From contig JBARPC010000004.1 of assembly GCA_049642725.1 (NCBI GenBank), forward strand, positions 27,052 to 91,051: DNA of 64,000 nucleotides, given 5' to 3'. The stretch comes from Minisyncoccales bacterium. Its GTDB lineage: Bacteria > Patescibacteriota > Minisyncoccia > Minisyncoccales > JAGMDC01. Below are positions 4,468-59,699 of this stretch, piece by piece. How positions within the stretch are numbered: the stretch's first letter is position 1; each line of letters begins with the position of its first letter. A program made the position numbers and the translations under genes. The notes under the pieces were generated by a model. The model searched no databases, had not been told where the DNA came from, and saw only the letters and a list, made by a program, of their open reading frames with translations.

Positions 4468-4726
4468 CTATTTTGACTATTCGCTGGCTTTTATCAAACT
4501 TTATTTTTCTTTTAGTAATAAATTTAATAATGCCTTGTTTAACAGCATAAAGAGTGTCATCATTGCCTCGTTTAACATTTGTTCCAGGAACAAACTTTGT
4601 TCCGCGCTGGCGAATAATAATACTACCTGGCTTTGCTTTTTGACCACTATAAAGTTTAACCCCTAAGTATTTGGGACTAGAATCTCTTCCTAACTTTGTT
4701 GCTCCTGTTGCTTTTGTTTTAGCCAT
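4448..4726 (-). CDS. rpmA: 50S ribosomal protein L27
   Basis: [51 protein letters not shown] matches the L27 consensus. Confidence 0.9.
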
Positions 4727-6614: not shown

Positions 6615-7553
6615 TTAAATACCATGATATTTTTGGTGTATTTCTCTTAGGTGAGGCTTGGTGACATGGGTATATACTTGAGTGGTAACTATATTTCTGT
6701 GGCCTAAAAATTCTTGAATAACCCTTAAATCAACGCCTTTCATAAGTAAATCTGTTGCAAAACTATGTCTAAGAGTGTGGCAAGAAGTGGTTATAGGAAG
6801 TCCGGCTATAACAGCATATTTTTTAACTGTACGTTCCATACTTCTTACATTTAAACGAGTTCCAGGTTTTTTTCCTCTATAGTTTATAAACAAAGCTTTT
6901 TCTTTATCGCTACGACTATATAGATATTTTTTTAGCCAATTTATAGTCCTTTCTGATAAATAAACAGTTCTAGGATGGCCCCCTTTGCCCATAATACTAA
7001 TTTCTAATTCTTTAGTATCAGGTTTTATTTTAATTTGGTCTCGATTAAGATTTACTAATTCTGCTACCCTTAAACCAGTTGAAAAAAAAGTTTCTAAGAT
7101 GGTCTTATCTCTTAGACCTCTTATATTGGAGTTTTTTGGCGCGTCTAAAAGCCTTTTAACTTGCTCTAAGGTTAGGAAATTTACAGTTCTTTCTTCTTTT
7201 TCTTTAGGTAGTTTTATCTTTTCTGGCGGAAGAGATAAGATATCTTTTTCAGTAAAATAATTCAAAAGTGATCTTAAGGCAATTAAATAATAATTTTGGG
7301 TTGAACGTTTTAAGGGTTTTTTATCCTTCTGAAGATATTGCCTAGAAAGAAATAGTCTGTATTTCCAAATATGGTCTGTTGTTAGTTCGTAGGGTTTTAT
7401 ATTTTCTATCTTATTTATCTTTAGAAAATCAAAAAACTTTTTTAAAAATCTTGAATAATTTTCTTGACTTTTATTAGCTAAACCTTTTTCAAGCTCTAAC
7501 CAGTCCAAATAATCAGAGAGGAGGTCTTTAATTGGTTTGTTTATTTTATCCAT
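6615..7553 (-). CDS. Tyrosine recombinase XerC/XerD family
   Basis: C-terminal catalytic region HTLRHSFATDLLMKGVDLRVIQEFLGHRNIVTTQVYTHV carries the R..H..R..Y pattern. N-terminal SAM-like domain present. Confidence 0.8.
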   Translation of the reverse strand: MDKINKPIKDLLSDYLDWLELEKGLANKSQENYSRFLKKFFDFLKINKIENIKPYELTTDHIWKYRLFLSRQYLQKDKKPLKRSTQNYYLIALRSLLNYFTEKDILSLPPEKIKLPKEKEERTVNFLTLEQVKRLLDAPKNSNIRGLRDKTILETFFSTGLRVAELVNLNRDQIKIKPDTKELEISIMGKGGHPRTVYLSERTINWLKKYLYSRSDKEKALFINYRGKKPGTRLNVRSMERTVKKYAVIAGLPITTSCHTLRHSFATDLLMKGVDLRVIQEFLGHRNIVTTQVYTHVTKPHLREIHQKYHGI

Positions 7554-7671
7554 ATATAATAGCTATTAAGATACATTATACGACACGATATATATCAATA
7601 ATATAACAGCCAAATGACTGTGTCAAGCCCTCCCCCTGTGGATATTTATAGCTTAATTTACTTATTTCTTA

Positions 7672-8190
7672 TTAGCTACTTAAAAAAAGATCTTTAAGTT
7701 TTTGCCACAAGCCCTTATTAGCTTCAGGAATTTCTTGTTTTAATTCTTGTTTTTCTTTTTCAAATTCTTGTTCAATAACAGGTTTTTTTTCAATGATTTT
7801 TTCATTTATGAAACTCTTGATCCAATTCAGTATATTTTGGATCCAGGGCTTGATAGTGTCATACCAGATGTCTGAAAGCCAATTTATTGCTTCATTCCAC
7901 CAGGATTTGATTGTTGGCAAAATATTCTTAAACCAAGGCAAAACTGAAGATTTCCACCAATTAGATGCTTTTTGCCCCATTTTTTGCCAAAAAGGCAGAA
8001 CCTTATTTTGCCAGATGTTTTTCATAGCATTGGGCAGGGGTTTAATCAAACTAATTATAAAATCCTTTGCTTCTGTAAAAGTACTCGGAGCTTCAACTGT
8101 TGTTTGAGCAAAACAAAAATTAGGCAAAATTAAACCGACTATTGACAGAATTATTAAAATTTTGTATAATGATTTATATCTAAAAAGCAT
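7672..8190 (-). CDS. Secreted Trp-rich protein (hypothetical)
   Basis: N-terminal signal peptide MLFRYKSLYKILIILSIVGLILPNFCFA. Many W residues in a repeating PW/WW context. Confidence 0.5.
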   Translation of the reverse strand: MLFRYKSLYKILIILSIVGLILPNFCFAQTTVEAPSTFTEAKDFIISLIKPLPNAMKNIWQNKVLPFWQKMGQKASNWWKSSVLPWFKNILPTIKSWWNEAINWLSDIWYDTIKPWIQNILNWIKSFINEKIIEKKPVIEQEFEKEKQELKQEIPEANKGLWQKLKDLFLSS

Positions 8191-23479: not shown

Positions 23480-24844
23480 TCAAACAATAGCTATCTGTGG
23501 ATAACTTAATTTATAGATATCCCCTGCTCCCATTATAATGAGAATTTCTTTGTCTCTTAAATTCTTTTTTAAATAAGCCGCTGTTTGCTTAATAGATGAA
23601 ATATATTTGACATTTCTTGTCATAGCAAAATTTGTCAAGTTGTTTTTTATTTCTTCAACTAATTTTTCTGAACTAACTTTGCTTTTAATTTTTTTCTCTT
23701 CCCTACCAGCCACATCATAGATGTCTGTAATAATTAACCTATCAATCCAATTTTTATCTATTGCTTGCTTAAAAACTTTAACAAAATCATTAAATAAATA
23801 ATATGTTCTTTGATATTGATGGGGCTGAAAAACACACCAAATTTTCTGTTTGGAAAACTTTTCCCTGCATGCTTTTAAGGTTACTTTTACTTCTGTTGGA
23901 TGATGAGCATAGTCCGAAATAATAAATAATAAATGATTATTGATAGTTGTTTTTTTTATTTCAAAACGGCGCCATGAACCTTTATATTCTGACAATACCT
24001 TATAACTAACCTTATCTGGAATTTTTAAAGTTCTAGCTATACTCAAAGCGGCTAAAGCATTATAAATATTGTGTTCCCCAGGCACCTTTAAAATTTTTTT
24101 TAGTTTCTCGGTATCCTTTTGTTTTATAGAAAAACTTCTTTTTTGTACTTGAATATGTAGTTTTGAAATATTCTTATCTTCTCTATTCGTAATTAGTATC
24201 CCATTTTTTGGTAAATGCGAAACAAACTTTTCAAAAGCTTTTAAGATATTCTTTAAGTTTTTATAATAATCCAAATGTTCTTTTTCAATATTGGTAATAA
24301 TAGCAATTTTAGGCCAATAATTCAAAAATGATTCTTCATATTCGCAGGCCTCAATAATTAAATATTTACTCTTGCCCATGCGAAAATTTGAATTCTTAAA
24401 TTCTTTAACTTTTGTTCCAACAATTACTGTTGGGTCCAATCCAGCTTTAATTAAAATCAAAGCAGTCATTGCTGTGGTTGTGCTTTTTCCGTGAGTGCCG
24501 GTTATGGCAATAGTAAAGTATTTTTTTGTTAATTCTCCCAAAGCTTCTGGATAAGATAAACATTTAATGCCCAATTTTTTCGCCTCTTTTAATTCTGGAT
24601 TATCTTCCTGAACTGCCGGGCTATAAATTACTTTTAAAAATTTATCTTTTTCTCTACCTATAATTTTTGTCAAATTTTTAGCATTATGGGCTCCAATAAA
24701 AATTTTTGGTCCCTGCTTTTTTAATTTTTCAGTGATTTCTGAAGAAACCAAATCAGAACCAGAAACTTGCTCGCCTATTTCTAAATAATATTGAGCTAAA
24801 GCAGAAATGCCTATTCCGCCGATACCGATGAAATGAATTTTCAT
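23480..24844 (-). CDS. murC: UDP-N-acetylmuramate--L-alanine ligase
   Basis: MKIHFIGIGGIGISALAQY N-terminal motif. Mur ligase P-loop GTHGKSTTT. Confidence 0.9.
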   Translation of the reverse strand: MKIHFIGIGGIGISALAQYYLEIGEQVSGSDLVSSEITEKLKKQGPKIFIGAHNAKNLTKIIGREKDKFLKVIYSPAVQEDNPELKEAKKLGIKCLSYPEALGELTKKYFTIAITGTHGKSTTTAMTALILIKAGLDPTVIVGTKVKEFKNSNFRMGKSKYLIIEACEYEESFLNYWPKIAIITNIEKEHLDYYKNLKNILKAFEKFVSHLPKNGILITNREDKNISKLHIQVQKRSFSIKQKDTEKLKKILKVPGEHNIYNALAALSIARTLKIPDKVSYKVLSEYKGSWRRFEIKKTTINNHLLFIISDYAHHPTEVKVTLKACREKFSKQKIWCVFQPHQYQRTYYLFNDFVKVFKQAIDKNWIDRLIITDIYDVAGREEKKIKSKVSSEKLVEEIKNNLTNFAMTRNVKYISSIKQTAAYLKKNLRDKEILIIMGAGDIYKLSYPQIAIV

Positions 24845-25437
24845 AATTTTACGCTTTCTAAAATCGCATACTCCGCTCCCCCACGTTTTAATCTGCTTTC
24901 CATTATTTCAATTGAATTTACTGGAAAGTCTAAAGAAATTTCTTCGTCTATTTCTGGTGTTTCTTCTGGTTCTATTCTTCTCCATTCCCAAACTCTAATT
25001 CTGCCCAAGGTAATATGAGGTGAAAAAACCCTATTTTCTGAAGTAAAATTAATCCCTGAATCAATTAAGGACTTTTCTAAGTCGTTTTTCAAATCAGTTA
25101 ATTCTTTTATTCTTTCTCCTGCTACCCAAACCATTCTTGGAGGTATTTTTTTAGGGGGGCCATAGCAAATTCTATTCAAATTTATAGAAAAGGACTGATG
25201 TCGTACAGCAATTTCTTTAACAGTTTTATTAATTTCTAAAATCTCTTGATTATTCAGATTACCAAGAAAAATTAAGGTAATATGAAGATTGTCTGATTTT
25301 ACCCATTTAATAGGTAAATTCGGCCATTTATCCTGATAACTTAAAAGTTCTCTTTTTATATTTTCAGGCAGATTTATAGCAATAAAAATCCTTTTCATCA
25401 TTAGTTTTAATGTATCAGAATCTTGACTTTGTTTCAA
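24841..25437 (-). CDS. thpR: RNA 2',3'-cyclic phosphodiesterase / 2'-5' RNA ligase (2H phosphoesterase)
   Basis: Two H-x-T-x motifs (HITLIFLG and HITLGRI). Confidence 0.85.
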   Translation of the reverse strand: MKQSQDSDTLKLMMKRIFIAINLPENIKRELLSYQDKWPNLPIKWVKSDNLHITLIFLGNLNNQEILEINKTVKEIAVRHQSFSINLNRICYGPPKKIPPRMVWVAGERIKELTDLKNDLEKSLIDSGINFTSENRVFSPHITLGRIRVWEWRRIEPEETPEIDEEISLDFPVNSIEIMESRLKRGGAEYAILESVKL

Positions 25438-25451
25438 GGTTTTAGTATGAT
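25423..25451 (+). promoter_or_regulatory. Sigma70-like promoter candidate (TTGACT-N17-TATGAT) upstream of the TFB-like gene
   Basis: Hexamers and spacing read directly from the sequence. Overlaps the divergent thpR start codon. Confidence 0.4.
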
Positions 25452-25497
25452 GAGAAAAGAGTTTTGTTATTTAAAAATAGAAAAATTGGTGATAAAA

Positions 25498-26556
25498 ATG
25501 AGCGTAGAAGCTAAAGAAAGATTGAGAGATAATAACGCATCTATTGTCCAGAATAATTATTATAATATAGGCGATGATACAGACATAGAAGGTCCAAATA
25601 GAATAAGAAAATGCCCTGAGTGCAGTTCTAAATGTTTGGTAAAGGATTACAAAAAAGCAGAGATTTTTTGCGCTGATTGCGGTATGGTAATAGCAGAAAA
25701 TATCATAGACCTCGGTCCCGAATGGCGCGCTTTTGACCCTGAACAGACATTAAAAAAGACAAGAGTTGGAGCTCCGATGACTTATAGAATACACGATAAA
25801 GGATTGGGTACTGTTATAAACTGGGGTTCGCCGAGTAAAGAGCAATACAAGTTAAAGAAATTGCATAAGCTGACATATATTACTAAAACAACCGAAAAGA
25901 GCTTTATTTTCGCTCTTTCAGAGATAGACCGTATGGCATGCGCGCTTAAACTACATGTGAATATCATAGAAAGAGCATCTATGTTATACCGAAAGGCGAT
26001 GAAGAAACATTTGATACGCGGAAGAAGCATAGAAGCTTTGACTACCGCTCTCTTATACATTGTCTGCAGACAATACGGAGTGCCGCGAACACTGGACGAA
26101 ATTACAGAATTTTCAAGAGTTAGAAAGAAAGAAATAAGACGAGCGTATTTCTTTCTCTTGCGGGAGCTTGATTTAAAGGTTTCGCCTGCTTCTCCTGTTG
26201 ACTTCGTGCCTCGTTTCTGCTCCTTGCTTAATTTAGGTGGTGATATAAGAGCAAAAGCAATAGAGATAATAAAGAAGGCGGCGGAAACGGAATTGACCAA
26301 TGGGCGAGGGCCGATAGGGATAGCAGCAGCGGCTATTTACATTGCTGCGATTTTAAGCGGTGAGCATCAAAGCCAAAGCGAAATAGCAAAAGTATGCGGC
26401 ACAACACCAGCAACGATAAGAACCAGATATAAAGAAATGACAGTATTGTTAGAAGAGGATACGCTTCCCTTTCTCTGTTCCGATGGACGCGTGTGCAGAG
26501 TACTAAAGGAGAATTCCGAACAAAAAAATATTCTGGACAAAAAACAAAAAATATAG
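25498..26556 (+). CDS. tfb: Transcription initiation factor IIB (TFB/TFIIB) homolog: N-terminal zinc ribbon plus two cyclin-fold repeats
   Basis: CPECSSKCLV...CADCG zinc ribbon. ENIIDLGPEWRAFD B-reader/linker. FALSEIDRMACALKL...IRGRSIEALTTALLYIVCR (cyclin 1) and GRGPIGIAAAAIYIAAIL...IRTRYKEM (cyclin 2) align closely with archaeal TFB. GC and codon usage are visibly shifted from the neighbours. Confidence 0.85.
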   Translation: MSVEAKERLRDNNASIVQNNYYNIGDDTDIEGPNRIRKCPECSSKCLVKDYKKAEIFCADCGMVIAENIIDLGPEWRAFDPEQTLKKTRVGAPMTYRIHDKGLGTVINWGSPSKEQYKLKKLHKLTYITKTTEKSFIFALSEIDRMACALKLHVNIIERASMLYRKAMKKHLIRGRSIEALTTALLYIVCRQYGVPRTLDEITEFSRVRKKEIRRAYFFLLRELDLKVSPASPVDFVPRFCSLLNLGGDIRAKAIEIIKKAAETELTNGRGPIGIAAAAIYIAAILSGEHQSQSEIAKVCGTTPATIRTRYKEMTVLLEEDTLPFLCSDGRVCRVLKENSEQKNILDKKQKI

Positions 26557-26607
26557 GGAATTTGATTTTCCCTGTTTTTTTTACAAAATAATGATAAGAT
26601 AAAAGTA

Positions 26608-27507
26608 GTGAAAGAAGCAATATTATACAAAAAACTTAAAAATAAAGAGGCAGAGCAATTCAACAGGGTGAAATGCCAAAATTGCGCTCATTATTGTGTT
26701 ATTAAGCCAGGCCAGCGAGGAATTTGCGGAGTAAGAGAAAATATCGGCGGTAAATTATATGCTCTCAATTATAACAAAGCAATTGCTCTAAATATTGACC
26801 CGATTGAAAAGAAACCATTATATCGCTTCCTGCCCGGCACACAGTCATTATCTGTAGCTACCGTCGGATGTAATTTTAGATGCGCAAATTGCCAAAATTA
26901 TGATATTTCTCAAATTCCACAGCTCATTGGAAAAATTGAAGGAGAAAACTTGCCTCCAAAAGAAATTGTCAAAATTGCTAAAAAAAATAATCTGCCTTCT
27001 ATCTCTTATACATACACCGAACCAGCTATTTTTTCAGAATATGCTTTAGATACAATGAAATTAGCCAAAAAGCAAGGAATAAAAAATGTCTGGGTCAGTA
27101 ATGGTTTTTGGTCAAAAGAATTATTTGATTTGATTTCACCTTATTTAGACGCAGCTAATATTGATTTAAAAAGTTTTTCTGATGAGTTTTACAGAAAATA
27201 CTGCGGCGGCCGACTTGAGCCTGTTTTAGACACTTTAAAAAGATTAAAAAAGAAAAAAATCTGGATTGAAGTTACAACTTTGATTATTCCTACTTTAAAT
27301 GATAATGAAAAAAATCTAAAAAATATTGCTGATTTTATTAAAAAAGAATTAGGAGCTGGAATACCTTGGCATATCAGCCGATTTTCAGGAGCAATTTCTT
27401 GGAAACTTCAACACTTGCCAGATACTCCGATTGAAACTCTTAAAAAGGCAGAACAAATCGGCAAAAAATCTGGTTTAAAATATATTTATCTCGGTAATAT
27501 TCTATGA
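26608..27507 (+). CDS. Radical SAM enzyme, AmmeMemoRadiSam-system type (AmrS-like)
   Basis: CNFRCANCQNY CX3CX2C radical SAM motif and an N-terminal extra Cys cluster CQNCAHYC. Gene context with AMMECR1 and the LigB/Memo-like gene. Confidence 0.8.
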   Translation: MKEAILYKKLKNKEAEQFNRVKCQNCAHYCVIKPGQRGICGVRENIGGKLYALNYNKAIALNIDPIEKKPLYRFLPGTQSLSVATVGCNFRCANCQNYDISQIPQLIGKIEGENLPPKEIVKIAKKNNLPSISYTYTEPAIFSEYALDTMKLAKKQGIKNVWVSNGFWSKELFDLISPYLDAANIDLKSFSDEFYRKYCGGRLEPVLDTLKRLKKKKIWIEVTTLIIPTLNDNEKNLKNIADFIKKELGAGIPWHISRFSGAISWKLQHLPDTPIETLKKAEQIGKKSGLKYIYLGNIL

Positions 27508-28115
27508 TTTCTTTTGCTTGTTTTTCTCCTCATCCTCCGCTGCTTTTGCCTGAAGTTGGTTCTCCAGAGGATAGAGAAAAAGTTAAAAAAACAATTGAAA
27601 ATTTGAAGTTTTTAGGAAAGAAACTAAAGGCAACTAATCCTGATACTATTATTATTTCCTCTCCTCACCCGGACTGGGGTTTTGATGTTCCTCTTTATTT
27701 TTTAAATCCTAAACAACGTATTCCAAGCAGACAATTATTTATTCCTGACAAAACCCCTGATTTTTATTATGAAAGAGGAAAACAATTTTATAATAAATTA
27801 GAAAAAGATAAAAAGTATGCTTTAATCGCTTCTGGTGATATGTCTCATTGCCTTAAAGAAAATGGTCCTTATGCTTTTCATCCTGACGGGCCGAAATTTG
27901 ACAAAGCCCTGATTGAATACCTAAAGAAAAAAGATATTAAAAGCTTTTTTAAATTAGACGAATATTTTCCAAATGCCGGTGAGTGCGGTTTGCGTTCATT
28001 CTCTTTTATTTTAGGAATTTTAGACGCCTCAAGCATAGATTGGCAGCCAGAAATCCTGTCTTACGAATCCCCTTTCGGCGTCGGCTACCTTGTTGTAAAT
28101 TTCAAATTACGATAA
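27504..28115 (+). CDS. LigB/Memo-superfamily (class III extradiol dioxygenase-like) protein
   Basis: Starts at the amrS stop (4-nt overlap). Size and His/Asp-containing motifs are consistent with the LigB/Memo fold. Assignment is partly by context. Confidence 0.55.
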   Translation: MISFACFSPHPPLLLPEVGSPEDREKVKKTIENLKFLGKKLKATNPDTIIISSPHPDWGFDVPLYFLNPKQRIPSRQLFIPDKTPDFYYERGKQFYNKLEKDKKYALIASGDMSHCLKENGPYAFHPDGPKFDKALIEYLKKKDIKSFFKLDEYFPNAGECGLRSFSFILGILDASSIDWQPEILSYESPFGVGYLVVNFKLR

Positions 28116-28403: not shown

Positions 28404-28476
28404 GAGTGCGTAGCTTAGTGGCAAAGCCGCCGAGTGAAATCGGAGGAGACCGCCGGTTCGAATCCGGCCGTACCCA
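28404..28476 (+). tRNA. tRNA-like element: canonical D-arm and T-arm (GGTTCGAATCC) but an A2-C71 mismatch and a non-canonical anticodon arm (4-bp stem with 6-nt loop GTGAAA); possible pseudo-tRNA or atypical tRNA
   Basis: Folded by hand: acceptor GAGTGCG/CGTACCC, U8, D-arm GCTT-AGTGGCA-AAGC, T-arm GCCGG-TTCGAAT-CCGGC. Confidence 0.45.
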
Positions 28477-28587: not shown

Positions 28588-29412
28588 CTATTCGTACCCA
28601 TTTAAGACGTCTTTCTTTATAAGATTTCGGGATTCCTGGTTAGTTAACAACTCCATCGTTTCTAAGCGGGCTAGAACATAACCTATCCAACGGCCTGCTT
28701 TCCCCGAAGTATTATTCATCTTTTTGATTTCTTCTGACATCCATAGTAGATGAGAGGGTAAATCAGTGATTCCTTGCCTTGGTTTTGCTTTTGGAAAGTT
28801 CTTTTTTATGATGTTTGTAATTGCTTCTATAGTGTTAGGATAGTATTTTATTTCGTTCTTTTCTGCTGCTAATTTTGCTTGTAAAAATCGGTTGGACTGA
28901 TAAAAACTCTCTACTGTTCCAGAATCCCACCATCCTTTAATCTCTGGCTCTCTTATAAGGTTAGACCTGTGAAAAGGAACTTTTCCCGGAGACAGGATGA
29001 CACTCAAAGGATGCATTCCTTTTTCTTGTCTGATACGAATTAACTTTTTGCCCTGAAAACATAGTCCCATTCTAATCAGCACTCGGCGAATAGCAATATC
29101 CTGGATGTGTGTTCGCGGTGTTTCTTGTTTTAAGTAATCAAATCCTGACTCAATATTTGATGGTTCGTCATCATAGACATTTACTGCCTCGGTAGTAAGC
29201 TGTTCCAGAATGTCTGGATTGTCTTGCAAAAATTTATAGTAGGCATCCTCATATAAAGTACAAACGCCGAGAAAACCAACGAATGTCTCACCGACTTCCC
29301 ATACTAAACGCCAATTTTCTTTACCGTATTCTTCATTCCATTCTTTGTGTCTTCTCTCACGATACTTTCCTATATACCCAGGTCGTCCAATCTTCACCCA
29401 TTTTTCTTTCAT
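28588..29412 (-). CDS. Hypothetical protein (274 aa), GC-shifted and foreign-looking
   Basis: Long ORF with higher GC and different third-position usage than its neighbours. Adjacent to the tRNA-like element. No family recognised. Confidence 0.5.
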   Translation of the reverse strand: MKEKWVKIGRPGYIGKYRERRHKEWNEEYGKENWRLVWEVGETFVGFLGVCTLYEDAYYKFLQDNPDILEQLTTEAVNVYDDEPSNIESGFDYLKQETPRTHIQDIAIRRVLIRMGLCFQGKKLIRIRQEKGMHPLSVILSPGKVPFHRSNLIREPEIKGWWDSGTVESFYQSNRFLQAKLAAEKNEIKYYPNTIEAITNIIKKNFPKAKPRQGITDLPSHLLWMSEEIKKMNNTSGKAGRWIGYVLARLETMELLTNQESRNLIKKDVLNGYE

Positions 29413-31628: not shown

Positions 31629-31961
31629 ATGAACAAAAAATTGTATATTGGCGGTTTATCCTACGATACTACTGAAGATGGATTAAAAGATGCTTTTTCT
31701 AAAGCCGGCACTGTTGAATCAGCGACTATTATCATTGATAAGGTCTCTGGCCGTTCAAAAGGATTTGGCTTTGTGGAAATGGCTTCTGAAGAAGAAGCTC
31801 AAAAAGCAATGGAAATGTGGAATGAGAAAGAACTTGATGGTCGCACTCTCACTGTGAATGAAGCTCGCCCTTTGGAGGCTCGTCCTCAAGGGAGAGATTT
31901 CAATCGCGGCGGCGGAGGTGGCCGGGATTCTAGGAGGAATGACCGTAATAACCGTTGGTAA
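31629..31961 (+). CDS. RRM-domain RNA-binding protein with a Gly/Arg-rich tail
   Basis: RNP2 LYIGGL and RNP1 KGFGFVEM motifs. C-terminal RGGGGGRD. Confidence 0.8.
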   Translation: MNKKLYIGGLSYDTTEDGLKDAFSKAGTVESATIIIDKVSGRSKGFGFVEMASEEEAQKAMEMWNEKELDGRTLTVNEARPLEARPQGRDFNRGGGGGRDSRRNDRNNRW

Positions 31962-52476: not shown

Positions 52477-52788
52477 TTAATTTTCGATTTTTAGGATTTC
52501 AACCTCTGTAAATAGCTGGCGATGGCCGGTTTTTTTTCTATATCTTTTTTTTGCTTTATATTTAAAAATAATTACTTTTTTGCCTTTTCCCTGCTTTAAA
52601 ATCTTTCCAATAACTTTAGCTCCCTTAACAAACGGAGTTCCAATTTCTAATTTCTTATTTTTTTCCAATAACAAAACCTCTTTAAAGGTTATTTCTTTTT
52701 CCTCTTTTGCGTCAAGTTTCTCTATTTTTAATTTTGTTCCTGGCTCGACAAGATACTGCTTGCCGCCAGTTTTAATCACTGCAAACAT
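52477..52788 (-). CDS. rplU: 50S ribosomal protein L21
   Basis: MFAVIKTGGKQYLVEPGTKLKIEKL matches the L21 N-terminus. Confidence 0.9.
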   Translation of the reverse strand: MFAVIKTGGKQYLVEPGTKLKIEKLDAKEEKEITFKEVLLLEKNKKLEIGTPFVKGAKVIGKILKQGKGKKVIIFKYKAKKRYRKKTGHRQLFTEVEILKIEN

Positions 52789-54100: not shown

Positions 54101-56002
54101 CTATTTATTTTCTTCTTCTTTCTTAGAAGCGAAAATAAACTTCACTAATTCTATAAAATAATCCAAAAGTCCTTTTTCTGATTTTCTGGTTTCACCCCAA
54201 AGTACACCTGCCTTTTCTTGATTTTCAATGAAGTTTCGTATTTCCTCTTCAGATGTTTCTATACCTTGGTTTTTGCGAAAATAGTTTTCAATAATCCCTG
54301 GGTCTTCTTCTATATCACCGCTTATTTTATCAAGTCCTCCTTTTCCTTCCATAATTTCAGACATAAATCTATGAGTGTCTTCCATCATTCCCTTTACTTC
54401 ATATTCTTTTTTTAGTTTTTCTAATTCCTCAGCAGTTTTTTTCTGTTTTTTGGCTCCTTCTTTCAAATCTTCATCAATCAATTTTCCTTTAACCCTATCA
54501 AATAAACCCTGTATTCCTTTTTCTGCTTTCTCCGGTGAGCCAGCTATCGCTTTGATTTCCTCATTGATTATTTTCTTTACTTCCTCATCACGAATTCTCT
54601 TTTTCTCATCCCATTCTCTCCCTAATTCATCTTCTGATTTATCATTAACTTCTTTGTTATAATCTTCCATTCTTTCTTTAAGAAATTCCGAGAATTCTTT
54701 ATACTTCACTGTATCTTTTTTTCCATCGGTCTTTCTAAGTTCAACTAATGTATCTAAACGTTTTAATCTGATTTCTTCAACATCATATCCCGCATTCATT
54801 AAAGCTAATATCTTTTCATCATCCACGGTCATCATTTTCTTTGGATATGCTTCTTTTAATTTCTTTTTAATCTCATCCATCTTTTCTCCAAATTTCTTGT
54901 CAAATTTTTCTTTATAAAAATCGCTCATATCTTCCCATCTTTTAAAAGTCATTTCCTCGCCTAATAGTAATTTAGATTTTTTACAAAATTCCTCGCCTTG
55001 TTTTCTTTCGTCTAAGAGTTTCTCAATATAAGAATCTTTATTTTCTAAAAGTCCTGCCTTATTTTCAGCAAAATCTTCTAAATTCATTCCTTCTAATCCC
55101 TTGATTTTCGCAGTTAATTCTTTTATATCTTCAAATAAATTTCCTAATTCTTTCAATTTTTCATTTATTTCTATTTCTGGTCTTCCACTTTCTTCCATTC
55201 TCGTTAATTCTCCTTTCATTTTCTCAATTCTTTTATCTAATGTATTTAAAACCAAAATCTGCCCCTCAATTGAACAATCCTTTCTTTTATCAAAATCCGC
55301 GCTTATAACATATATGTTTTCTATATCTATCTTGTCTTCTTTATACTTCTTTTTTGTCCATAACTCTTCAAAGGCGCCATTTCTCATTGCGATTTCAGCT
55401 TTCTTGTCTCTTAAAAGTTCAAGATCCGAAGATATTCCTTCTTTTTTCTCAAGTTGTCTTCTATGTTCGTCAAACCATTTTACGGCAAATTCAATTCTTC
55501 TTTCGTCTTTCTCTTTTAGGAGCACATCTTTAATATTCTTTTCTCTGTCCGGATCCAATTTAAATTTTTCAGTAAATTCATTAAGCAACCGAGTTTCGTC
55601 CTCTCGCGCTGTTCCCTCATAAAAACGAGGAATTCTTTCAGGTTTTCTTTCTCTTTTTTCTTCTTTTTCTCCTACCTCTTTTTTTTCATCTTTTACTTTT
55701 CTTTCTTCCGTTTCTTTTCTTCTCTCTTCCAGTATTTTTTCAATCTCTTCCTTTGACATATCAGAAGTTATTAAGGTCTCATCCTCTTTATTGGCTATTT
55801 TTTCTCCTTTTTCTTTTTCTCCCATATTTTTGTTATTATTATTTTCATCTTTTCGTTCCGACCTTTTTAGTTCTTCTTTTGTTTTATCTGTAAAATTATC
55901 ATCTTCCTTTTCTTCAACCGAAACATCCCAGCCCGTCTTTTTGCCCGCCTCTTTTATATCTTTAAGTATTTCTTTTCCTAATTTTCTTTCTCCTTTACTC
56001 AT
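54101..56002 (-). CDS. Large E/K-rich coiled-coil hypothetical protein (633 aa, no TM)
   Basis: Extreme Glu/Lys content and heptad-like repeats. Immediately downstream of the T4CP-like ATPase gene. Confidence 0.5.
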   Translation of the reverse strand: MSKGERKLGKEILKDIKEAGKKTGWDVSVEEKEDDNFTDKTKEELKRSERKDENNNNKNMGEKEKGEKIANKEDETLITSDMSKEEIEKILEERRKETEERKVKDEKKEVGEKEEKRERKPERIPRFYEGTAREDETRLLNEFTEKFKLDPDREKNIKDVLLKEKDERRIEFAVKWFDEHRRQLEKKEGISSDLELLRDKKAEIAMRNGAFEELWTKKKYKEDKIDIENIYVISADFDKRKDCSIEGQILVLNTLDKRIEKMKGELTRMEESGRPEIEINEKLKELGNLFEDIKELTAKIKGLEGMNLEDFAENKAGLLENKDSYIEKLLDERKQGEEFCKKSKLLLGEEMTFKRWEDMSDFYKEKFDKKFGEKMDEIKKKLKEAYPKKMMTVDDEKILALMNAGYDVEEIRLKRLDTLVELRKTDGKKDTVKYKEFSEFLKERMEDYNKEVNDKSEDELGREWDEKKRIRDEEVKKIINEEIKAIAGSPEKAEKGIQGLFDRVKGKLIDEDLKEGAKKQKKTAEELEKLKKEYEVKGMMEDTHRFMSEIMEGKGGLDKISGDIEEDPGIIENYFRKNQGIETSEEEIRNFIENQEKAGVLWGETRKSEKGLLDYFIELVKFIFASKKEEENK

Positions 56003-56030
56003 ATTTTTCTATTTTTTATTTTAATTTACT

Positions 56031-58463
56031 TTAATAAAGTTTTGACCTTTCCATAATTTCTCTTTCCACCAGAGCCCTGGGTCTGCCATATTTCAGTTTG
56101 GAGATTTTTTTGACTGGTTCTATAATTTTTGGATTGCCCTCAATCGGTTTAATTGTTTTCACCTTGAATGGACTGGAAAGCTTGTTGTCTATCATCATCT
56201 TAACAATAAATTGGAAATTATCAAGATTAACCAAATCATAACGGGAGAATTCCGGCTCAAACTGCTTTTCTAAAAATTCAGCGTCAGTGGCGCCAATTCT
56301 GAAAGCAGAAATTGTCCCCACGTTTCCGATCACAGCGTCTCTAATCTGTTCTGTTAATTGAGGGATAAACTGGTGAGCTAAAATTAAATCCAAACGGTAT
56401 TTTCTTGCCTCTGATAAAATAGTAGCAATAGTATCAGTAGTAAAATTCTGAAATTCATCAATATACAAATAAAAATCTTTTCTCTGTTCTTCTGGCAATC
56501 TTCCTCTTTTCATCGCTGCTAATTGCATTTTAGACACTAAAATCAAACCTAATAAAGAACTGTTCATTTCACCTGTTTGTCCTTTTGACAAATTGGCTAA
56601 AAATATTTTTCCTTCATCCATAATCTTTGCCAGATCAAACCCTGAATGCGACTGGCCAATAATATTTCTCATCATCTCATTTTCAACAAACCTGCCAACT
56701 TTTGAAACAACATAGCCAAGCATGTCTGAACGGGTTTCACCGGTTGTCTGCGCCCATTCTTTCAACCAAAACTGCCTTACTAAAGGATCTCTTACTTTTT
56801 CTAACCGTTCTTTCATAAAATCATCGTCTGTAAAAATTCTTGGGATTTCCACTAATGTCCCAGGATCATCCTTATCCGCCATTAAAGCAAGCATGGCGTT
56901 CCTCATATAATGCTCAAACATAGGGCCAATAATTTCTGGAGGGAAAAGTTTGGAAAAGATGGCAATCATTTCAGAAGCGGCAAAATCTTTTTGTTCAGGC
57001 GTATCCCATTCCAGCATATTTAATCCGCAAGGCCTTTCTAGGTCAAACGGTTCAAACAAAACTACATCTTCAGCCCTTTCTTTTGGAATATTGGCCAAGA
57101 TATCTTCAATTAAATCACCGTGAGGGTCAATAACCCCGACTCCTCGTCCTTGTTCAATATCCTGACGGATCATTTCTCTCAATAAAGATGATTTACCAGT
57201 TCCGGTTTGACCTATAATATAACAATGGCGGCGTCTGTCGTTTTCCGTTGCAAAATAAACTTCTTTTTCTTCACTGCGAAAAACTGCCTTGCCTATTAAA
57301 TTAAGTCCAGTAGAAGGCAATTCAGTTGGCGGAGCCACTTCTTTTGTTTTTACCCATTTAATCTGGGGACTTTCAATATGAGACAAAGGAAAATGATAAA
57401 TACTGGTTAGTTCTTCTAAATTTAAAATACTTCTCTGGTTTTTATTAAAAACACGAAAGCTGAAATTGTAAATAAATTGCTTTAGCTTATTTTTTTTAAC
57501 TTTTATTGAATTCAATTCATTAAAATTATTATAAAACTGGGAAAAACCGCTTTCTAAATGACTTAAAATTTCTTCTGCCCTTGACTGCTCTTGGGCAACT
57601 CCTAATAAGCGAATATTCACATCAAAAACCGGTTTTTGGATTTTGGTTTTAATTGCTTCAAAACTGGGCTCTTCAAACGGCTTTTCTTTTTCCTTTTCCA
57701 AGAAACTTTTTTTCTCATCTTCTTTTTTAGAAGACATTGCTTCAAGAAATGAGTCAAAAAACTTCATTATTCCGCTTTTTTCTGTTTCAGCAATAGCTGT
57801 TAAGGCGGTTTTTCCTTCTCTAATTTTAGAAAGAACTTTTTCTCCCTTGTATTTCAAATCTTTTGAACAAGGCCTAAGAATTATTTGGACTGCTGCTCCT
57901 TCATCAGGATTAATCTTGCTTAAAGTATTGGTAATACTTGCCAAAGGATCTTTTTCCAGGTTTTTATAAGTGTTAATGGGAAAATAAATCGCTTTTTTTA
58001 ATTTTAAATAAGAACCAGCTATTTTTCCGCTTGGTTCAAAGACAGTGTAATCTTCGGGGACTTTTTCTACTTGAGCGCCCGGATATACCCCCTGAATATT
58101 TTTCTCTAATCCGGTTTCCAAGTTGGTTGGCACCGCAACATAAAATGAAATATCACTGCCGCCCACTTGCGAAGCAATTTCTAAAGCAATTCTTGGTGAA
58201 CCCTGAAAAAATCTTTTAATAAAATTCGGCTTCTCTAAATACAAAAAATTAGAGTATATTTGCTCCATTATTCCAATCACTGATTTTATATCCTGTTTCT
58301 CTTTTTCTTCTTTCTTTTCATACTTCGGCAACCTCACCAAAAACAAAGCCATATCCAATGACTTTGTTAATTGCTTGATTTTTCTTTTCTTGGCGGCCAA
58401 AAACCAACCTATTCCAAAAAGAATTAAAATAATTATACCTAAAATTATCAATAAAAAATCCAT
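56031..58463 (-). CDS. Membrane-anchored AAA-like ATPase of the VirD4/TraG/TrwB (type IV coupling protein, DUF87-like) class
   Basis: N-terminal TM. Walker A GQTGTGKSS, Walker B LYIDEFQNF. TraG/TraD-like C-terminal region. Family call from motifs only. Confidence 0.55.
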   Translation of the reverse strand: MDFLLIILGIIILILFGIGWFLAAKKRKIKQLTKSLDMALFLVRLPKYEKKEEKEKQDIKSVIGIMEQIYSNFLYLEKPNFIKRFFQGSPRIALEIASQVGGSDISFYVAVPTNLETGLEKNIQGVYPGAQVEKVPEDYTVFEPSGKIAGSYLKLKKAIYFPINTYKNLEKDPLASITNTLSKINPDEGAAVQIILRPCSKDLKYKGEKVLSKIREGKTALTAIAETEKSGIMKFFDSFLEAMSSKKEDEKKSFLEKEKEKPFEEPSFEAIKTKIQKPVFDVNIRLLGVAQEQSRAEEILSHLESGFSQFYNNFNELNSIKVKKNKLKQFIYNFSFRVFNKNQRSILNLEELTSIYHFPLSHIESPQIKWVKTKEVAPPTELPSTGLNLIGKAVFRSEEKEVYFATENDRRRHCYIIGQTGTGKSSLLREMIRQDIEQGRGVGVIDPHGDLIEDILANIPKERAEDVVLFEPFDLERPCGLNMLEWDTPEQKDFAASEMIAIFSKLFPPEIIGPMFEHYMRNAMLALMADKDDPGTLVEIPRIFTDDDFMKERLEKVRDPLVRQFWLKEWAQTTGETRSDMLGYVVSKVGRFVENEMMRNIIGQSHSGFDLAKIMDEGKIFLANLSKGQTGEMNSSLLGLILVSKMQLAAMKRGRLPEEQRKDFYLYIDEFQNFTTDTIATILSEARKYRLDLILAHQFIPQLTEQIRDAVIGNVGTISAFRIGATDAEFLEKQFEPEFSRYDLVNLDNFQFIVKMMIDNKLSSPFKVKTIKPIEGNPKIIEPVKKISKLKYGRPRALVEREIMERSKLY

Positions 58464-58466
58464 AAC

Positions 58467-58856
58467 TTATTTCTCTAAAAATTTCTTAAATAATCCCTTT
58501 TTTGCTAAAGTATCATGGAATAAATCCAGCAAATATGGGTCATCCATTTTTCTGGCTACTTCTACAGCGTAAGCCAAACCCTGGGATTGAGCCAAATCCA
58601 AAAGATGCTGGATTTTTCCCTTAACAGTTCCCTTTTTTATATCTTCGGCTTGCTTCCGGGCTTGGACTTTTGCTTGGGGAGATAATTTGACCTTTTCAAT
58701 CTCTTTTTCTATTTCCTTCTTTACTTCTTTTTCTTCCTCGGTTAATTCTTTCTTTTCTAAAATCTCTTCCCTCTTTTTTATGGTTTCTTTAGGAAAAATC
58801 TCTTCCCTATATTCCTTTCCCGGCTCTTTTTCAATTTTTTTATCAAATTCTTCCAT
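58467..58856 (-). CDS. Charged hypothetical protein (129 aa)
   Basis: ORF co-oriented and tightly spaced (3 nt) upstream of the ATPase gene. Confidence 0.4.
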   Translation of the reverse strand: MEEFDKKIEKEPGKEYREEIFPKETIKKREEILEKKELTEEEKEVKKEIEKEIEKVKLSPQAKVQARKQAEDIKKGTVKGKIQHLLDLAQSQGLAYAVEVARKMDDPYLLDLFHDTLAKKGLFKKFLEK

Positions 58857-58963
58857 ATCTTGATTCTATCATAATTTAACTAAAAATAAAGACCTATTTT
58901 CAATTTTTGGCTCACCCCGTAAAGCTTCGCCACGGGGCACGAATTTTTCCCGCATATTATACT

Positions 58964-58986
58964 ACTACGAGAACAGTTCTCGTAGT
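58964..58986. repeat. REP palindrome ACTACGAGAACAGTTCTCGTAGT (GTAG-type), 3' flank of the RAYT gene
   Basis: Perfect 11-bp arms. Preceded by a CCCCGT...ACGGGG hairpin plus T-run at 58906-58950. Confidence 0.75.
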
Positions 58987-58988
58987 GT

Positions 58989-59699
58989 TTAGTTTATTAA
59001 TATTTCTTTGAAATTAGAATCAGCCATTTGTTTTTTAAGCGAAATCCATTCTTTAACAAAATGACGGCTGTTATCTATACTGCCCATTAAGTTAGATAAT
59101 AACTCTCTGTTTGTTAATAAAGGATAATTCTTCTTGCCCAAATAATCAGGATAGCTTGACCATTTATAGTTTTCTAAAAATTTAATAACATCTTCTATAT
59201 TTTTGGTTTTTATCCCCTCTTCTTTCCATTTAGGAGCTATAATAGCTACAGGATTGGTATGAATGTAAACAAATAATGTTTTTAATTGCTCATCGTTTTT
59301 TACAATAACTGCCCTGAATCTCCCGTCAAAAACATGGCCCTTTCTTTCGTATTTCTTATTATAATACATTCCATATCCAGCTCCAATCTTTCTCATAAAC
59401 TTACTAATCCCTTGGCCTCTAACTTGTTTAATTAATAGATGAACATGATTTGGCATTAAACAAAAAGTCAAAATTTCCACCAACATTTTTCTTTCCTTCT
59501 TTATTCTACCACTACGAGAACTGTTCTCGTAGTGTTGACGATAAGACCAAATAGTGGGATTTTTGTCGTTAAATTCAAATAAATTATGAAGAGAACGAAA
59601 ATAATCCCTTTCGTCTCTAAAAAGCTTCATTCCTTCCACTGCCCTAATTACAATATGGTATATTTCTCCGTTTACTAATGGTGGTCTTTTAATTGGCAT
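58989..59699 (-). mobile_element. REP-associated tyrosine transposase (RAYT; IS200/IS605-family Y1 HuH transposase TnpA)
   Basis: HuH motif CLMPNHVHLLIKQ and catalytic Tyr motif YIHTNPV. Flanked on both sides by the 23-nt REP palindrome. Confidence 0.8.
59511..59533. repeat. REP palindrome ACTACGAGAACTGTTCTCGTAGT lying in-frame inside the RAYT CDS (encodes YENSSRS)
   Basis: Identical to the flanking REPs. Located in the N-terminal third of the transposase gene. Confidence 0.75.

Follow-up and report, generated by a model that had tools for sequence, protein, structure and literature searches.

A full-length archaeal transcription factor B gene, very probably acquired from ANME-1 archaea, resides in a clade of Patescibacteria

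Transcription factor B (TFB; TFIIB in eukaryotes) is, to our knowledge, a hallmark of archaeal and eukaryotic transcription that is considered absent from bacteria. How did a complete gene for it come to lie in the chromosome of a bacterium, and what might it do there? The gene in question occupies positions 25498-26556 of a 64,000-nucleotide stretch of contig JBARPC010000004.1 from a Minisyncoccales bacterium, which we call the window. We find it very probable that an ancestor of the Minisyncoccales/Nealsonbacteria clade (Patescibacteria, or Candidate Phyla Radiation, CPR) took up a full-length archaeal TFB from anaerobic methanotrophic archaea of group 1 (ANME-1, Methanophagales), and that the gene became fixed between thpR and the amrS operon with a sigma70-type promoter, a Shine-Dalgarno sequence and a terminator, to be passed on vertically ever since, held under purifying selection and yet changing faster than TFBs do in archaea. 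An initial annotation, made from the window alone, had proposed a horizontally acquired archaeal-type TFB in a bacterial genome, and this proposal is now supported by orthologs in synteny, by the assignment of the donor to ANME-1 and by the ratio of non-synonymous to synonymous substitution (dN/dS).

The open reading frame at 25423-26556 (+) holds the protein with every motif quoted in the initial annotation. The coding sequence and its modules are as follows.

25498..26556 (+): TFB/TFIIB coding sequence, 352 residues plus stop; from the open reading frame, Pfam, the Protein Data Bank (PDB), a database match and the start in orthologs
25612..25695 (+): zinc ribbon (residues 39-66, CPEC...CADC); PF08271, three strands in the AlphaFold2 model
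25696..25824 (+): B-reader helix/loop and B-linker (residues 67-109, ENIIDLGPEWRAFD...RVGAPMTYRIHDKGLGT); site retention and AlphaFold2 model
25825..25887 (+): hypervariable connector from B-linker to core (residues 110-130); identity among copies, insertions and deletions
25888..26181 (+): first cyclin repeat (residues 131-228), including LIRGRSIE; PF00382, model confidence above 90
26182..26469 (+): second cyclin repeat (residues 229-324) with the helix-turn-helix that reads the TFB-recognition element (BRE); PF00382, superposition on 1D3U_B
26470..26553 (+): AT-rich C-terminal extension (residues 325-352, ...LCSDGRVCRVLKENSEQKNILDKKQKI); tail comparison, predicted helix at 332-351

The full TFB architecture that had been claimed, namely ribbon, B-reader, B-linker and two cyclin repeats, was confirmed by the reading frame, Pfam, PDB matches and the structural model alike. 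Profile searches put the protein firmly inside the TFIIB family, with PF08271 (Zn_Ribbon_TF) at 4e-17 and 61.9 bits against a cut-off of 29, and PF00382 (TFIIB cyclin repeat) found twice at 1.5e-41 and 140.8 bits against 23.6. Among solved structures its best sequence matches are human TFIIB (residues 38-312, at 2e-54) and, at 2e-48, the core of Pyrococcus TFB. The ribbon cysteines C39, C42, C58 and C61 are invariant, and the B-reader/B-linker motif DLGPEWRAFD...R.GAPMTYRIHDKGL is present between ribbon and core. The AlphaFold2 model, with a 39-sequence alignment as input, has a predicted local distance difference test (pLDDT) score above 90 in both cyclin repeats (131-320) and of about 80 in the ribbon, falling below 50 at residues 76-80 and 87-110, inside a B-reader/B-linker region without order in isolation. 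The modelled core superposes on Pyrococcus woesei TFBc in its complex with TATA-binding protein (TBP) and BRE-TATA DNA (1D3U_B) at 1.1 Å over 193 columns, with a Foldseek TM score of 0.91, and the best full-length structural matches are the TFIIB chains of Pol II pre-initiation complexes. The C-terminal extension is partly common to two orthologs (L004 and L044) and is not found in typical archaeal TFBs, whose tail has a median length of 11 residues. The DNA coding for the N- and C-terminal extensions can be paired through an 18-nucleotide inverted repeat (25544-25561 and 26523-26540, 89% complementary), probably a chance feature of AT-rich DNA.

From which lineage might such a protein have come? 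We searched a database of 5.8 billion proteins with three queries, the window TFB and two divergent bacterial orthologs, and for all three the best non-bacterial matches were ANME-1/Methanophagales TFBs at 65-77% identity, followed by those of Archaeoglobi, Methanosarcinales, Methanocellales and Thermoplasmatota at no more than 60%. A similar picture emerges from profile hidden Markov models (HMMs) built for seven archaeal groups and scored against 11 bacterial TFBs. The crown ANME-1 profile ranks first for all 11 (435-553 bits), that of deep ANME-1/Alkanophagales second (414-524 bits), and each other group reaches at most 438 bits. P0003, the closest homolog in archaea, has ordinary archaeal surroundings, on a contig of 46% GC with genes for L21e, RNase HII and NucS, and another (P0111) adjoins AglB. 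The initial annotation had suggested placing the protein on a phylogeny. Neighbour-joining trees do group the bacterial TFBs with the ANME-1 cluster, either inside it or at its base, yet as long branches with negligible bootstrap: in 100 replicates on 66- and 65-taxon sets, the bacterial copies were monophyletic in 3-4% and crown ANME-1 in 15%. Since this topology is poorly resolved, we rely on the group HMM scores, the ranking of matches, synteny and 13 alignment columns in which at least four bacterial copies share a residue present in fewer than 2% of 133 archaeal TFBs (for example L63M, P196S and L314M/I). A single acquisition is supported by the shared insertion site together with these 13 bacteria-specific columns.

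The surroundings of the gene leave no ambiguity, as the 64 kb around it are bacterial. Pfam was run on the 56 open reading frames of at least 110 residues in the window, nested frames left out, and identified L9, CTP synthase, UppS, a XerC-like recombinase, GltX, MurG, FtsW, MurD, MraY and a PBP5-type carboxypeptidase, as well as AspS/AsnS, MurC, EF-P, ExoVII, an AddA-like helicase-nuclease, DnaX, CysS, DnaB, RecR, Fpg and RmuC; tblastn located L27 at about 4511-4726 (-) and L21 at about 52483-52788 (-). The bacteria-only machinery that had been listed for the contig (L9, L27, L21, DnaB, DnaX, RecR and Mur/MraY/FtsW) is thus verified by Pfam and tblastn, and an archaeal origin of the whole contig was not borne out, the window genes being bacterial with no archaeal RNA polymerase (RNAP) gene among them. 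The frames scanned with Pfam contain no TBP, TFE or archaeal RNAP subunit, and neither TBP nor archaeal RNAP was found in the window or in the fetched flanks of orthologs, whether by Pfam or, for TBP, also with a Pyrococcus TBP query. The immediate neighbours, whose near ends lie about 100 bp upstream (the thpR start) and about 50 bp downstream (amrS) of the TFB gene, are these.

24841..25401 (-): thpR, RNA 2',3'-cyclic phosphodiesterase; Pfam and NCBIfam; divergent, and the left neighbour in all bacterial TFB loci
26608..28115 (+): amrS and amrB, AmmeMemoRadiSam radical SAM enzyme and LigB/Memo-like protein; Pfam/NCBIfam; right neighbours by synteny

We sought the same arrangement in other genomes. 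The window TFB itself has an exact database match (MGB2762013.1, here P0001) on a 134.8-kb contig of a Minisyncoccales bacterium, and the search for orthologs in synteny with thpR and amrS, proposed in the initial annotation, returned the order murC-thpR | TFB in at least eight independent assemblies from NCBI, ENA, JGI and Logan, one of them (L044) lacking the amr genes downstream. The common gene order is murC - thpR (-) | TFB (+) - [small unknown gene] - amrS - amrB - AMMECR1 - HHH_8 - efp. This replication across bacterial assemblies also disposes of the earlier worry about a chimeric assembly. The ortholog contigs listed here all have a GC content of 32-34%.

L004: ENA, 7.9-kb contig
L044: 'Ca. 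Nealsonbacteria' CSMAG_2115, 19.5-kb contig
L045: 'Ca. Nealsonbacteria' CSMAG_2411, 135-kb contig
L046: 'bacterium' CSMAG_2101, 13.9-kb contig
L085/L086: GCA_030630045.1, 92.5-kb contig
L087: ENA, 164.5-kb contig
L089/L090: JGI, contig of about 3.6 kb

A further member of the cluster, MCK4520413.1, is annotated as 'transcription initiation factor IIB [Candidatus Parcubacteria bacterium]' and lies on a 330-kb contig. The TFB reading frame is intact in all 11 bacterial cluster representatives, P0048 being partial only through the end of its 1.4-kb contig; the copy of L045 has a truncated C-terminus.

Most of the orthologous loci also have a fast-evolving gene rich in lysine and glutamate, of about 200-225 residues, directly downstream of TFB (L004:3104-3781; L087:8033-8653; L085:8048-8653; L044 at about 7076-7747; L046 at about 2226-2858). 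Between some loci its identity is 47-77%, while in others it can scarcely be recognised. Pfam, NCBIfam and PDB searches gave no match for it, and it is not in the window, where amrS (26608) directly follows TFB. Possibly it encodes a protein that works together with the bacterial TFB and that the window lineage has lost.

How old is the gene in these bacteria? For all pairs of bacterial orthologs but one, synonymous divergence (dS) is saturated at about 0.7-2.0, which places the transfer before the radiation of these species, and dN/dS is 0.15-0.29 in 27 of 28 pairs. The exception, L046/L087, has a ratio of 0.50 at a dS of 0.03 and is a near-identical pair. As judged from these rates, the transfer is old, the gene is vertically inherited, and it is under purifying selection since its arrival. 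Distances between TFBs correlate weakly with those of thpR, murC and amrS (r = 0.12-0.27), but these were taken from partly saturated sequences extracted as high-scoring segment pairs, and we use them as evidence neither way.

The gene had been described as visibly richer in GC than its neighbours, and the excess is real, though modest and confined to the conserved core. GC is 0.40 and GC at third codon positions 0.36, compared to 0.334 ± 0.033 and 0.275 ± 0.046 for the window genes, whose mean is typical of CPR genomes; the core accounts for the excess (0.416), while the N- and C-terminal tails are host-like (0.328). The further claim of CGC, GCG and CCG codons avoided by the neighbours did not hold up. 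CGC+CGG amounts to 0.15 in TFB and 0.14 in the window, GCG+GCC to 0.25 and 0.27, and synonymous choice for Arg, Ala and Gly does not differ between TFB and the rest of the window. The foreign look of the gene comes mainly from its amino-acid composition. A recent transfer, as the GC excess might indicate, was rejected, as the excess is common to all orthologs but L089 despite a dS of at least 0.7 and goes with host-like synonymous choice.

The signals for expression are of bacterial type, and the spacer of roughly 100 bp between thpR and TFB is kept in an alignment of five orthologous loci.

25423..25451 (+): sigma70-type promoter, with -35 TTGACT (25423-25428), a 17-nucleotide spacer and -10 TATGAT (25446-25451); scan and ortholog alignment
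25466..25474 (+): leader motif GTTATTTAA; invariant among aligned orthologs
25488..25492 (+): Shine-Dalgarno-like GGTGA, 5 nucleotides before the ATG; a GGAG/GGTG aligns with it in most of the five loci
26553..26585 (+): terminator-like hairpin and T-run straight after the stop codon; scan

A near-consensus sigma70 promoter, TTGACT-N17-TATGAT, had been proposed for the gene. It is present upstream and conserved; taken singly it does not rise above chance, since the pattern occurs 4 times in the window where 5.1 are expected in DNA this rich in AT. The match gains weight through its conservation in orthologs: TTGACTTT (-35) is invariant in the five loci, with a -10-like hexamer (TATGAT, TAGAAT or TTAGAT) 17 nucleotides downstream. 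Transcription is predicted to begin near 25458. Position 25423 is the -35 box and not a start codon, and the start is the ATG at 25498, where AAAAATGA is conserved among the aligned loci. NCBI annotates MGB2762013.1 with 369 residues, 17 codons more than our reading of 352; its start ATG at 25447-25449 falls inside the -10 hexamer TATGAT, and the longer start is probably wrong. A metagenome-wide scan for the promoter/leader pattern gave 24 matches, none with TFB or thpR, and added no orthologs. On two unrelated metagenome contigs (L100:5857-5906 (-) and L101:3410-3459 (+)), TTGACTTTTTATCAAG...GTTATTTAA directly precedes a distant homolog of amrS, at 45% identity. Perhaps TFB came to lie behind a promoter that originally served amrS, or the motif may be a common form of CPR promoter.

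What the protein does can be approached through the residues it has kept. Our reference was a set of 101 sites, each conserved in at least 95% of the 133 archaeal TFBs. The window TFB keeps 95 of them and the other bacterial copies 87-96, compared to an average loss of 1.1 among archaeal TFBs. By module the window copy retains 11/11 in the ribbon, 11/12 in the B-reader, 7/7 in the B-linker, 35/35 in the first cyclin repeat and 31/35 in the second, so that B-reader and B-linker together keep 18 of 19. In known complexes (the Pol II-TFIIB structures) these two segments are ordered only inside the RNAP cleft. Their conservation despite disorder in isolation implies a binding partner, and argues that binding to a multisubunit RNAP may still be under selection. 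Elsewhere the protein has loosened. The connector at residues 110-130 has a mean pairwise identity of 0.28 among bacterial copies compared to 0.79 in crown ANME-1, with insertions and deletions. The archaeal BRE-reading helix TEVTIRN(RY) reads TPATIRT(RY) in the window, with V305A, N309T and, at a near-universal site, E304P changed and R308 and R310 kept. In the subclade of L046, P0047, P0050 and P0060 it is SVATIGA or SVST(V/I)G(T/V), with R308 lost (R308G/V), and R174 of the LIRGRS DNA-contact loop is lost as well (R174N/C/W). Bacterial copies are only 0.62-0.72 identical to each other, as low as across all archaeal orders sampled, and by these comparisons the evolution of the bacterial TFB is accelerated but constrained.

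Our leading, though tentative, candidate for the selected target is the archaeal-type transcription machinery of an archaeal host, probably ANME-1. With zinc ribbon, B-reader and B-linker kept, docking into an archaeal RNAP would still be possible, as would binding to TBP-DNA with the cyclin core kept, and the protein would then be a competitor, decoy or re-programmer of host initiation and not a bona fide initiation factor inside the bacterium. The initial annotation had named a regulator, a decoy or a partner of a mobile-element polymerase as candidate functions, and the evidence favours an action on an archaeal-type RNAP and TBP. A decoy would fit better than a precise initiation factor because both the coupling between the RNAP-binding and promoter-binding modules and the reading of the BRE appear relaxed. 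Several of the TFB-bearing metagenome-assembled genomes (MAGs) carry the isolate prefix 'CSMAG', which ANME-1 MAGs among the same matches carry too; judging by the name and by a literature match (PMC10491686), this prefix probably denotes the global cold-seep genome catalog. Relatives grown in culture or enrichment, namely Minisyncoccus archaeiphilus, 'Ca. Nealsonbacteria' and 'Ca. Yanofskyibacterium', live on methanogenic archaea as parasites or ectosymbionts (PMC13293708, PMC10936435, PMC12281837). Because relatives parasitise archaea and the scanned bacterial DNA shows neither of the usual partners of TFB, an archaeal-type RNAP or TBP, the machinery of the host would be the most economical target. 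The fuller scenario, in which archaea-parasitising Patescibacteria stole TFB from their host and the protein enters ANME-1 cells, competes with the native TFB for RNAP and TBP and throttles or re-programmes host transcription, is a possible one that we put forward with greater reserve.

Several observations weigh against this interpretation or the steps that lead to it. The charged N-terminus of TFB, inspected by eye, has no Sec-type hydrophobic segment; no secretion genes adjoin the TFB gene, the nearest gene resembling a type IV secretion component being a VirD4/TraD-like ATPase 30 kb away; and the C-terminal extension, a possible signal, is missing in L045, L046 and P0049. A full-text search for Nealsonbacteria together with ANME-1 found no literature linking this clade physically with ANME-1. 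As the cleft is built alike in bacterial RNAP, a conserved B-reader and B-linker cannot by themselves separate the RNAP of a host from the bacterium's own, and TBP or other archaeal factors could sit elsewhere in the genome, given that our scan covered the 64-kb window and the ortholog flanks. The neighbour-joining phylogeny leaves the monophyly of the bacterial copies without resolution. Lastly, NCBIfam NF001658 (transcription initiation factor IIB) gives 365.8 bits, a small shortfall from its cut-off of 384, which explains the cautious NCBI name of MGB2762013.1, 'TFIIB-type zinc ribbon-containing protein'; the assignment to the TFIIB family by Pfam and fold is unaffected. The missing export signal lowers the claim of a classical effector and not that of an action on host machinery. 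The C-terminal extension as a universal translocation tag was rejected on account of the same three copies.

The chief rival, which we consider rather unlikely, is that TFB was co-opted inside the bacterium, either binding the cell's own RNAP through ribbon, B-reader and B-linker, in competition with sigma or as a supplement to it, or binding AT-rich DNA as a regulator. The cleft, clamp coiled-coil and dock are, by textbook knowledge, common to multisubunit RNAPs, but the dock and lid of bacterial beta' differ, and the remodelling to be expected of a protein adapted to them is not seen in a ribbon, B-reader and B-linker still in archaeal states. Such a role would suit the conserved bacterial transcription and translation signals, the lack of a visible export signal in the N-terminus and purifying selection in a genome with no archaeal partner genes seen, and the invariant GTTATTTAA in the gene's own leader could be an operator. 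Against it, DNA binding by TFB is poor without TBP, again by textbook knowledge, the DNA-contact arginines are lost in one subclade, and the gene is not bound to one downstream operon, as L044 without amr genes illustrates.

It is improbable that TFB is a near-neutral passenger or a decaying relic of transfer from host to symbiont, or that it serves outside transcription, for instance as a cyclin-fold scaffold. One might read decay into copies that evolve far faster than archaeal ones (pairwise identity 0.62-0.72), into 5-14 changes at near-universal sites against the archaeal mean of 1.1, into the truncated C-terminus of L045 and into the NCBIfam score below cut-off; yet reading frames are intact in all 11 representatives, dN/dS stays at 0.15-0.29 despite a dS of at least 0.7, the regulatory signals are conserved, and the best-conserved segment has no structural role alone. 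CPR genomes are also strongly streamlined, a textbook trait, so that a useless 1-kb gene is unlikely to last.

That TFB serves a virus or mobile element of archaeal type living in the bacterium, or acts on imported archaeal DNA, we regard as very improbable. Nothing direct speaks for it beyond the uptake of foreign DNA by CPR bacteria, with ComEC and pili highly expressed in related parasites (PMC10936435), whereas no polymerase, integrase or repeat structure adjoins TFB, the locus is chromosomal and syntenic across species, and no close homolog was found in the 2.9 million viral contigs of IMG/VR. No convincing direct repeats or mobile-element scars flank the gene. A viral vector for the transfer was rejected as well, since IMG/VR holds no close homologs and only three distant ones. 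These three TFB/TFIIB-like proteins (L117, L118 and L119) are 28-33% identical to the window TFB, are separate from the present transfer, and show that TFB genes occur on presumed archaeal viruses.

An artefact, whether through chimeric assembly, through mis-binning of an archaeal fragment or because the contig is itself archaeal, is effectively refuted: a GC content up by about 2 standard deviations and one related 1.4-kb contig labelled Methanophagales would suit it, but bacterial genes lie within tens of bases on both sides, the same junctions recur in at least eight assemblies from NCBI, ENA, JGI and Logan, the AT-rich tails and promoter are host-like, and the window TFB is at best 75-77% identical to archaeal TFBs, which excludes a pasted archaeal read set. 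Mis-binning seems to have run the other way in one instance. The TFB MCK4731673.1 on the 1424-bp contig JAGLVH010000349.1 (L092, 38% GC) is labelled 'Methanophagales archaeon' and bears bacteria-specific residues such as T90, Q120 and M314; here a piece of a patescibacterial genome has probably been mis-binned into an ANME-1 MAG. A TFB match in a 'bacterial' MAG is not automatically contamination, and a short contig with TFB may wrongly be binned with archaea, as in the case of P0048.

We compared the bacterial TFB with systems already described. It shares with the ANME-1/Methanophagales TFBs (P0003 and P0013; structures 1D3U/1AIS) the order of domains and 70-77% identity over the conserved core, and with these and P. 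woesei TFBc the four zinc cysteines, B-reader, B-linker and both cyclin repeats, reflected in the 1.1 Å fit of the core. What sets it apart is its place on a bacterial chromosome, where a sigma70-type promoter and a ribosome-binding site precede it and neither TBP nor archaeal RNAP is seen nearby. It differs further in its AT-rich extensions at both termini, its hypervariable connector, its altered BRE helix, its faster evolution and an NCBIfam score just below cut-off. Modulatory paralogs of the TFB family are known, such as Sulfolobus TFB3 and the multi-TFB families of haloarchaea, some acting mainly through contacts to RNAP or TBP with weak reading of DNA; those act in their own cell beside the native machinery, whereas the present TFB is encoded by a bacterium.

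Transfers between CPR and DPANN organisms offer a second comparison, for instance the exchange of form II/III RuBisCO, a transfer of the host-to-episymbiont type. They are alike in being horizontal transfer across domains into a streamlined symbiont followed by vertical inheritance, and unlike in that such genes serve metabolism or the envelope and work autonomously, whereas TFB is informational and its normal partners are not seen in the scanned DNA of the recipient. A third is found in the effectors that mimic or manipulate host transcription, among them nucleomodulins, TAL effectors, phage sigma factors, T4 AsiA and RIP/ORF145 of the archaeal virus ATV. Giant viruses, too, have TFIIB-like genes (PMC7700475). 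The concept is shared, in that a parasite encodes a part or mimic of the host transcription apparatus so as to redirect or block it, and the present TFB is a candidate for such a mode of action.

Full-text searches found no paper describing a TFB in these bacteria, the single match for Parcubacteria and TFIIB being unrelated; broader searches gave no paper on the subject, as judged by title or abstract, and a 2024 parasitism paper in mBio makes no mention of a bacterial TFB. The bacterial proteins stand in NCBI under automatic names only. The statement in the initial annotation that TFB has no established role in bacteria accordingly agrees with these searches. The family is known; what is new is its stable residence in bacteria, where a clade has kept it for long and, as it appears, under selection, and if directed at a host it would be a new kind of cross-domain effector. 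We know of no effector for the interaction of CPR bacteria with archaeal hosts, and the bacterial TFB is a concrete, cloneable candidate. Were the host-directed role true, it would be the first basal-transcription-factor mimic exchanged across domains, a bacterium would for the first time be seen to use a general transcription factor of archaea, and ANME-1 would be named as the host of an uncultured clade. ANME-1 are key marine methane oxidisers, and as likely hosts of a specific Minisyncoccales clade they could alter the view of methane-cycling consortia. A role inside the bacterial cell, if that were true, would be even more unexpected and, if TFB works there with the bacterial RNAP, would bear directly on the old debate over whether sigma factors and TFB are functionally equivalent.

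Some further features of the window and its related loci deserve mention. In one ortholog locus (L004:3781-6432) amrS is split by an intein with a LAGLIDADG homing-endonuclease domain, giving 883 residues compared to 299 in the window. The VirD4/TraD/TrwB-like coupling ATPase at 56031-58463 (-) lies within a cluster at 54101-59699 (-), flanked by a large orphan reading frame (54101-56002), a 129-residue orphan and an IS200/Y1-transposase-like gene (58989-59699). This cluster may belong to a DNA or protein translocation system, which would be relevant to the exit of an effector, or to a mobile element. Closer to TFB, a tRNA gene at 28404-28476 (+), with an Rfam score of 39.8 bits and no anticodon assigned by ARAGORN, possibly encodes tRNA-His (GTG), and it adjoins an orphan reading frame of 274 residues at 28588-29412 (-) with a raised GC content of 0.384 and no Pfam, NCBIfam or PDB match. 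Both are seemingly missing at the same position in L045 and L085, and together they look like a lineage-specific insertion within the amr cluster. Finally, a protein of 110 residues with an RRM_1 domain, an RNA recognition motif of eukaryote type, is encoded at 31629-31961 (+); its gene has the highest GC content in the window (0.441) and is kept at the same position in L085/L086.

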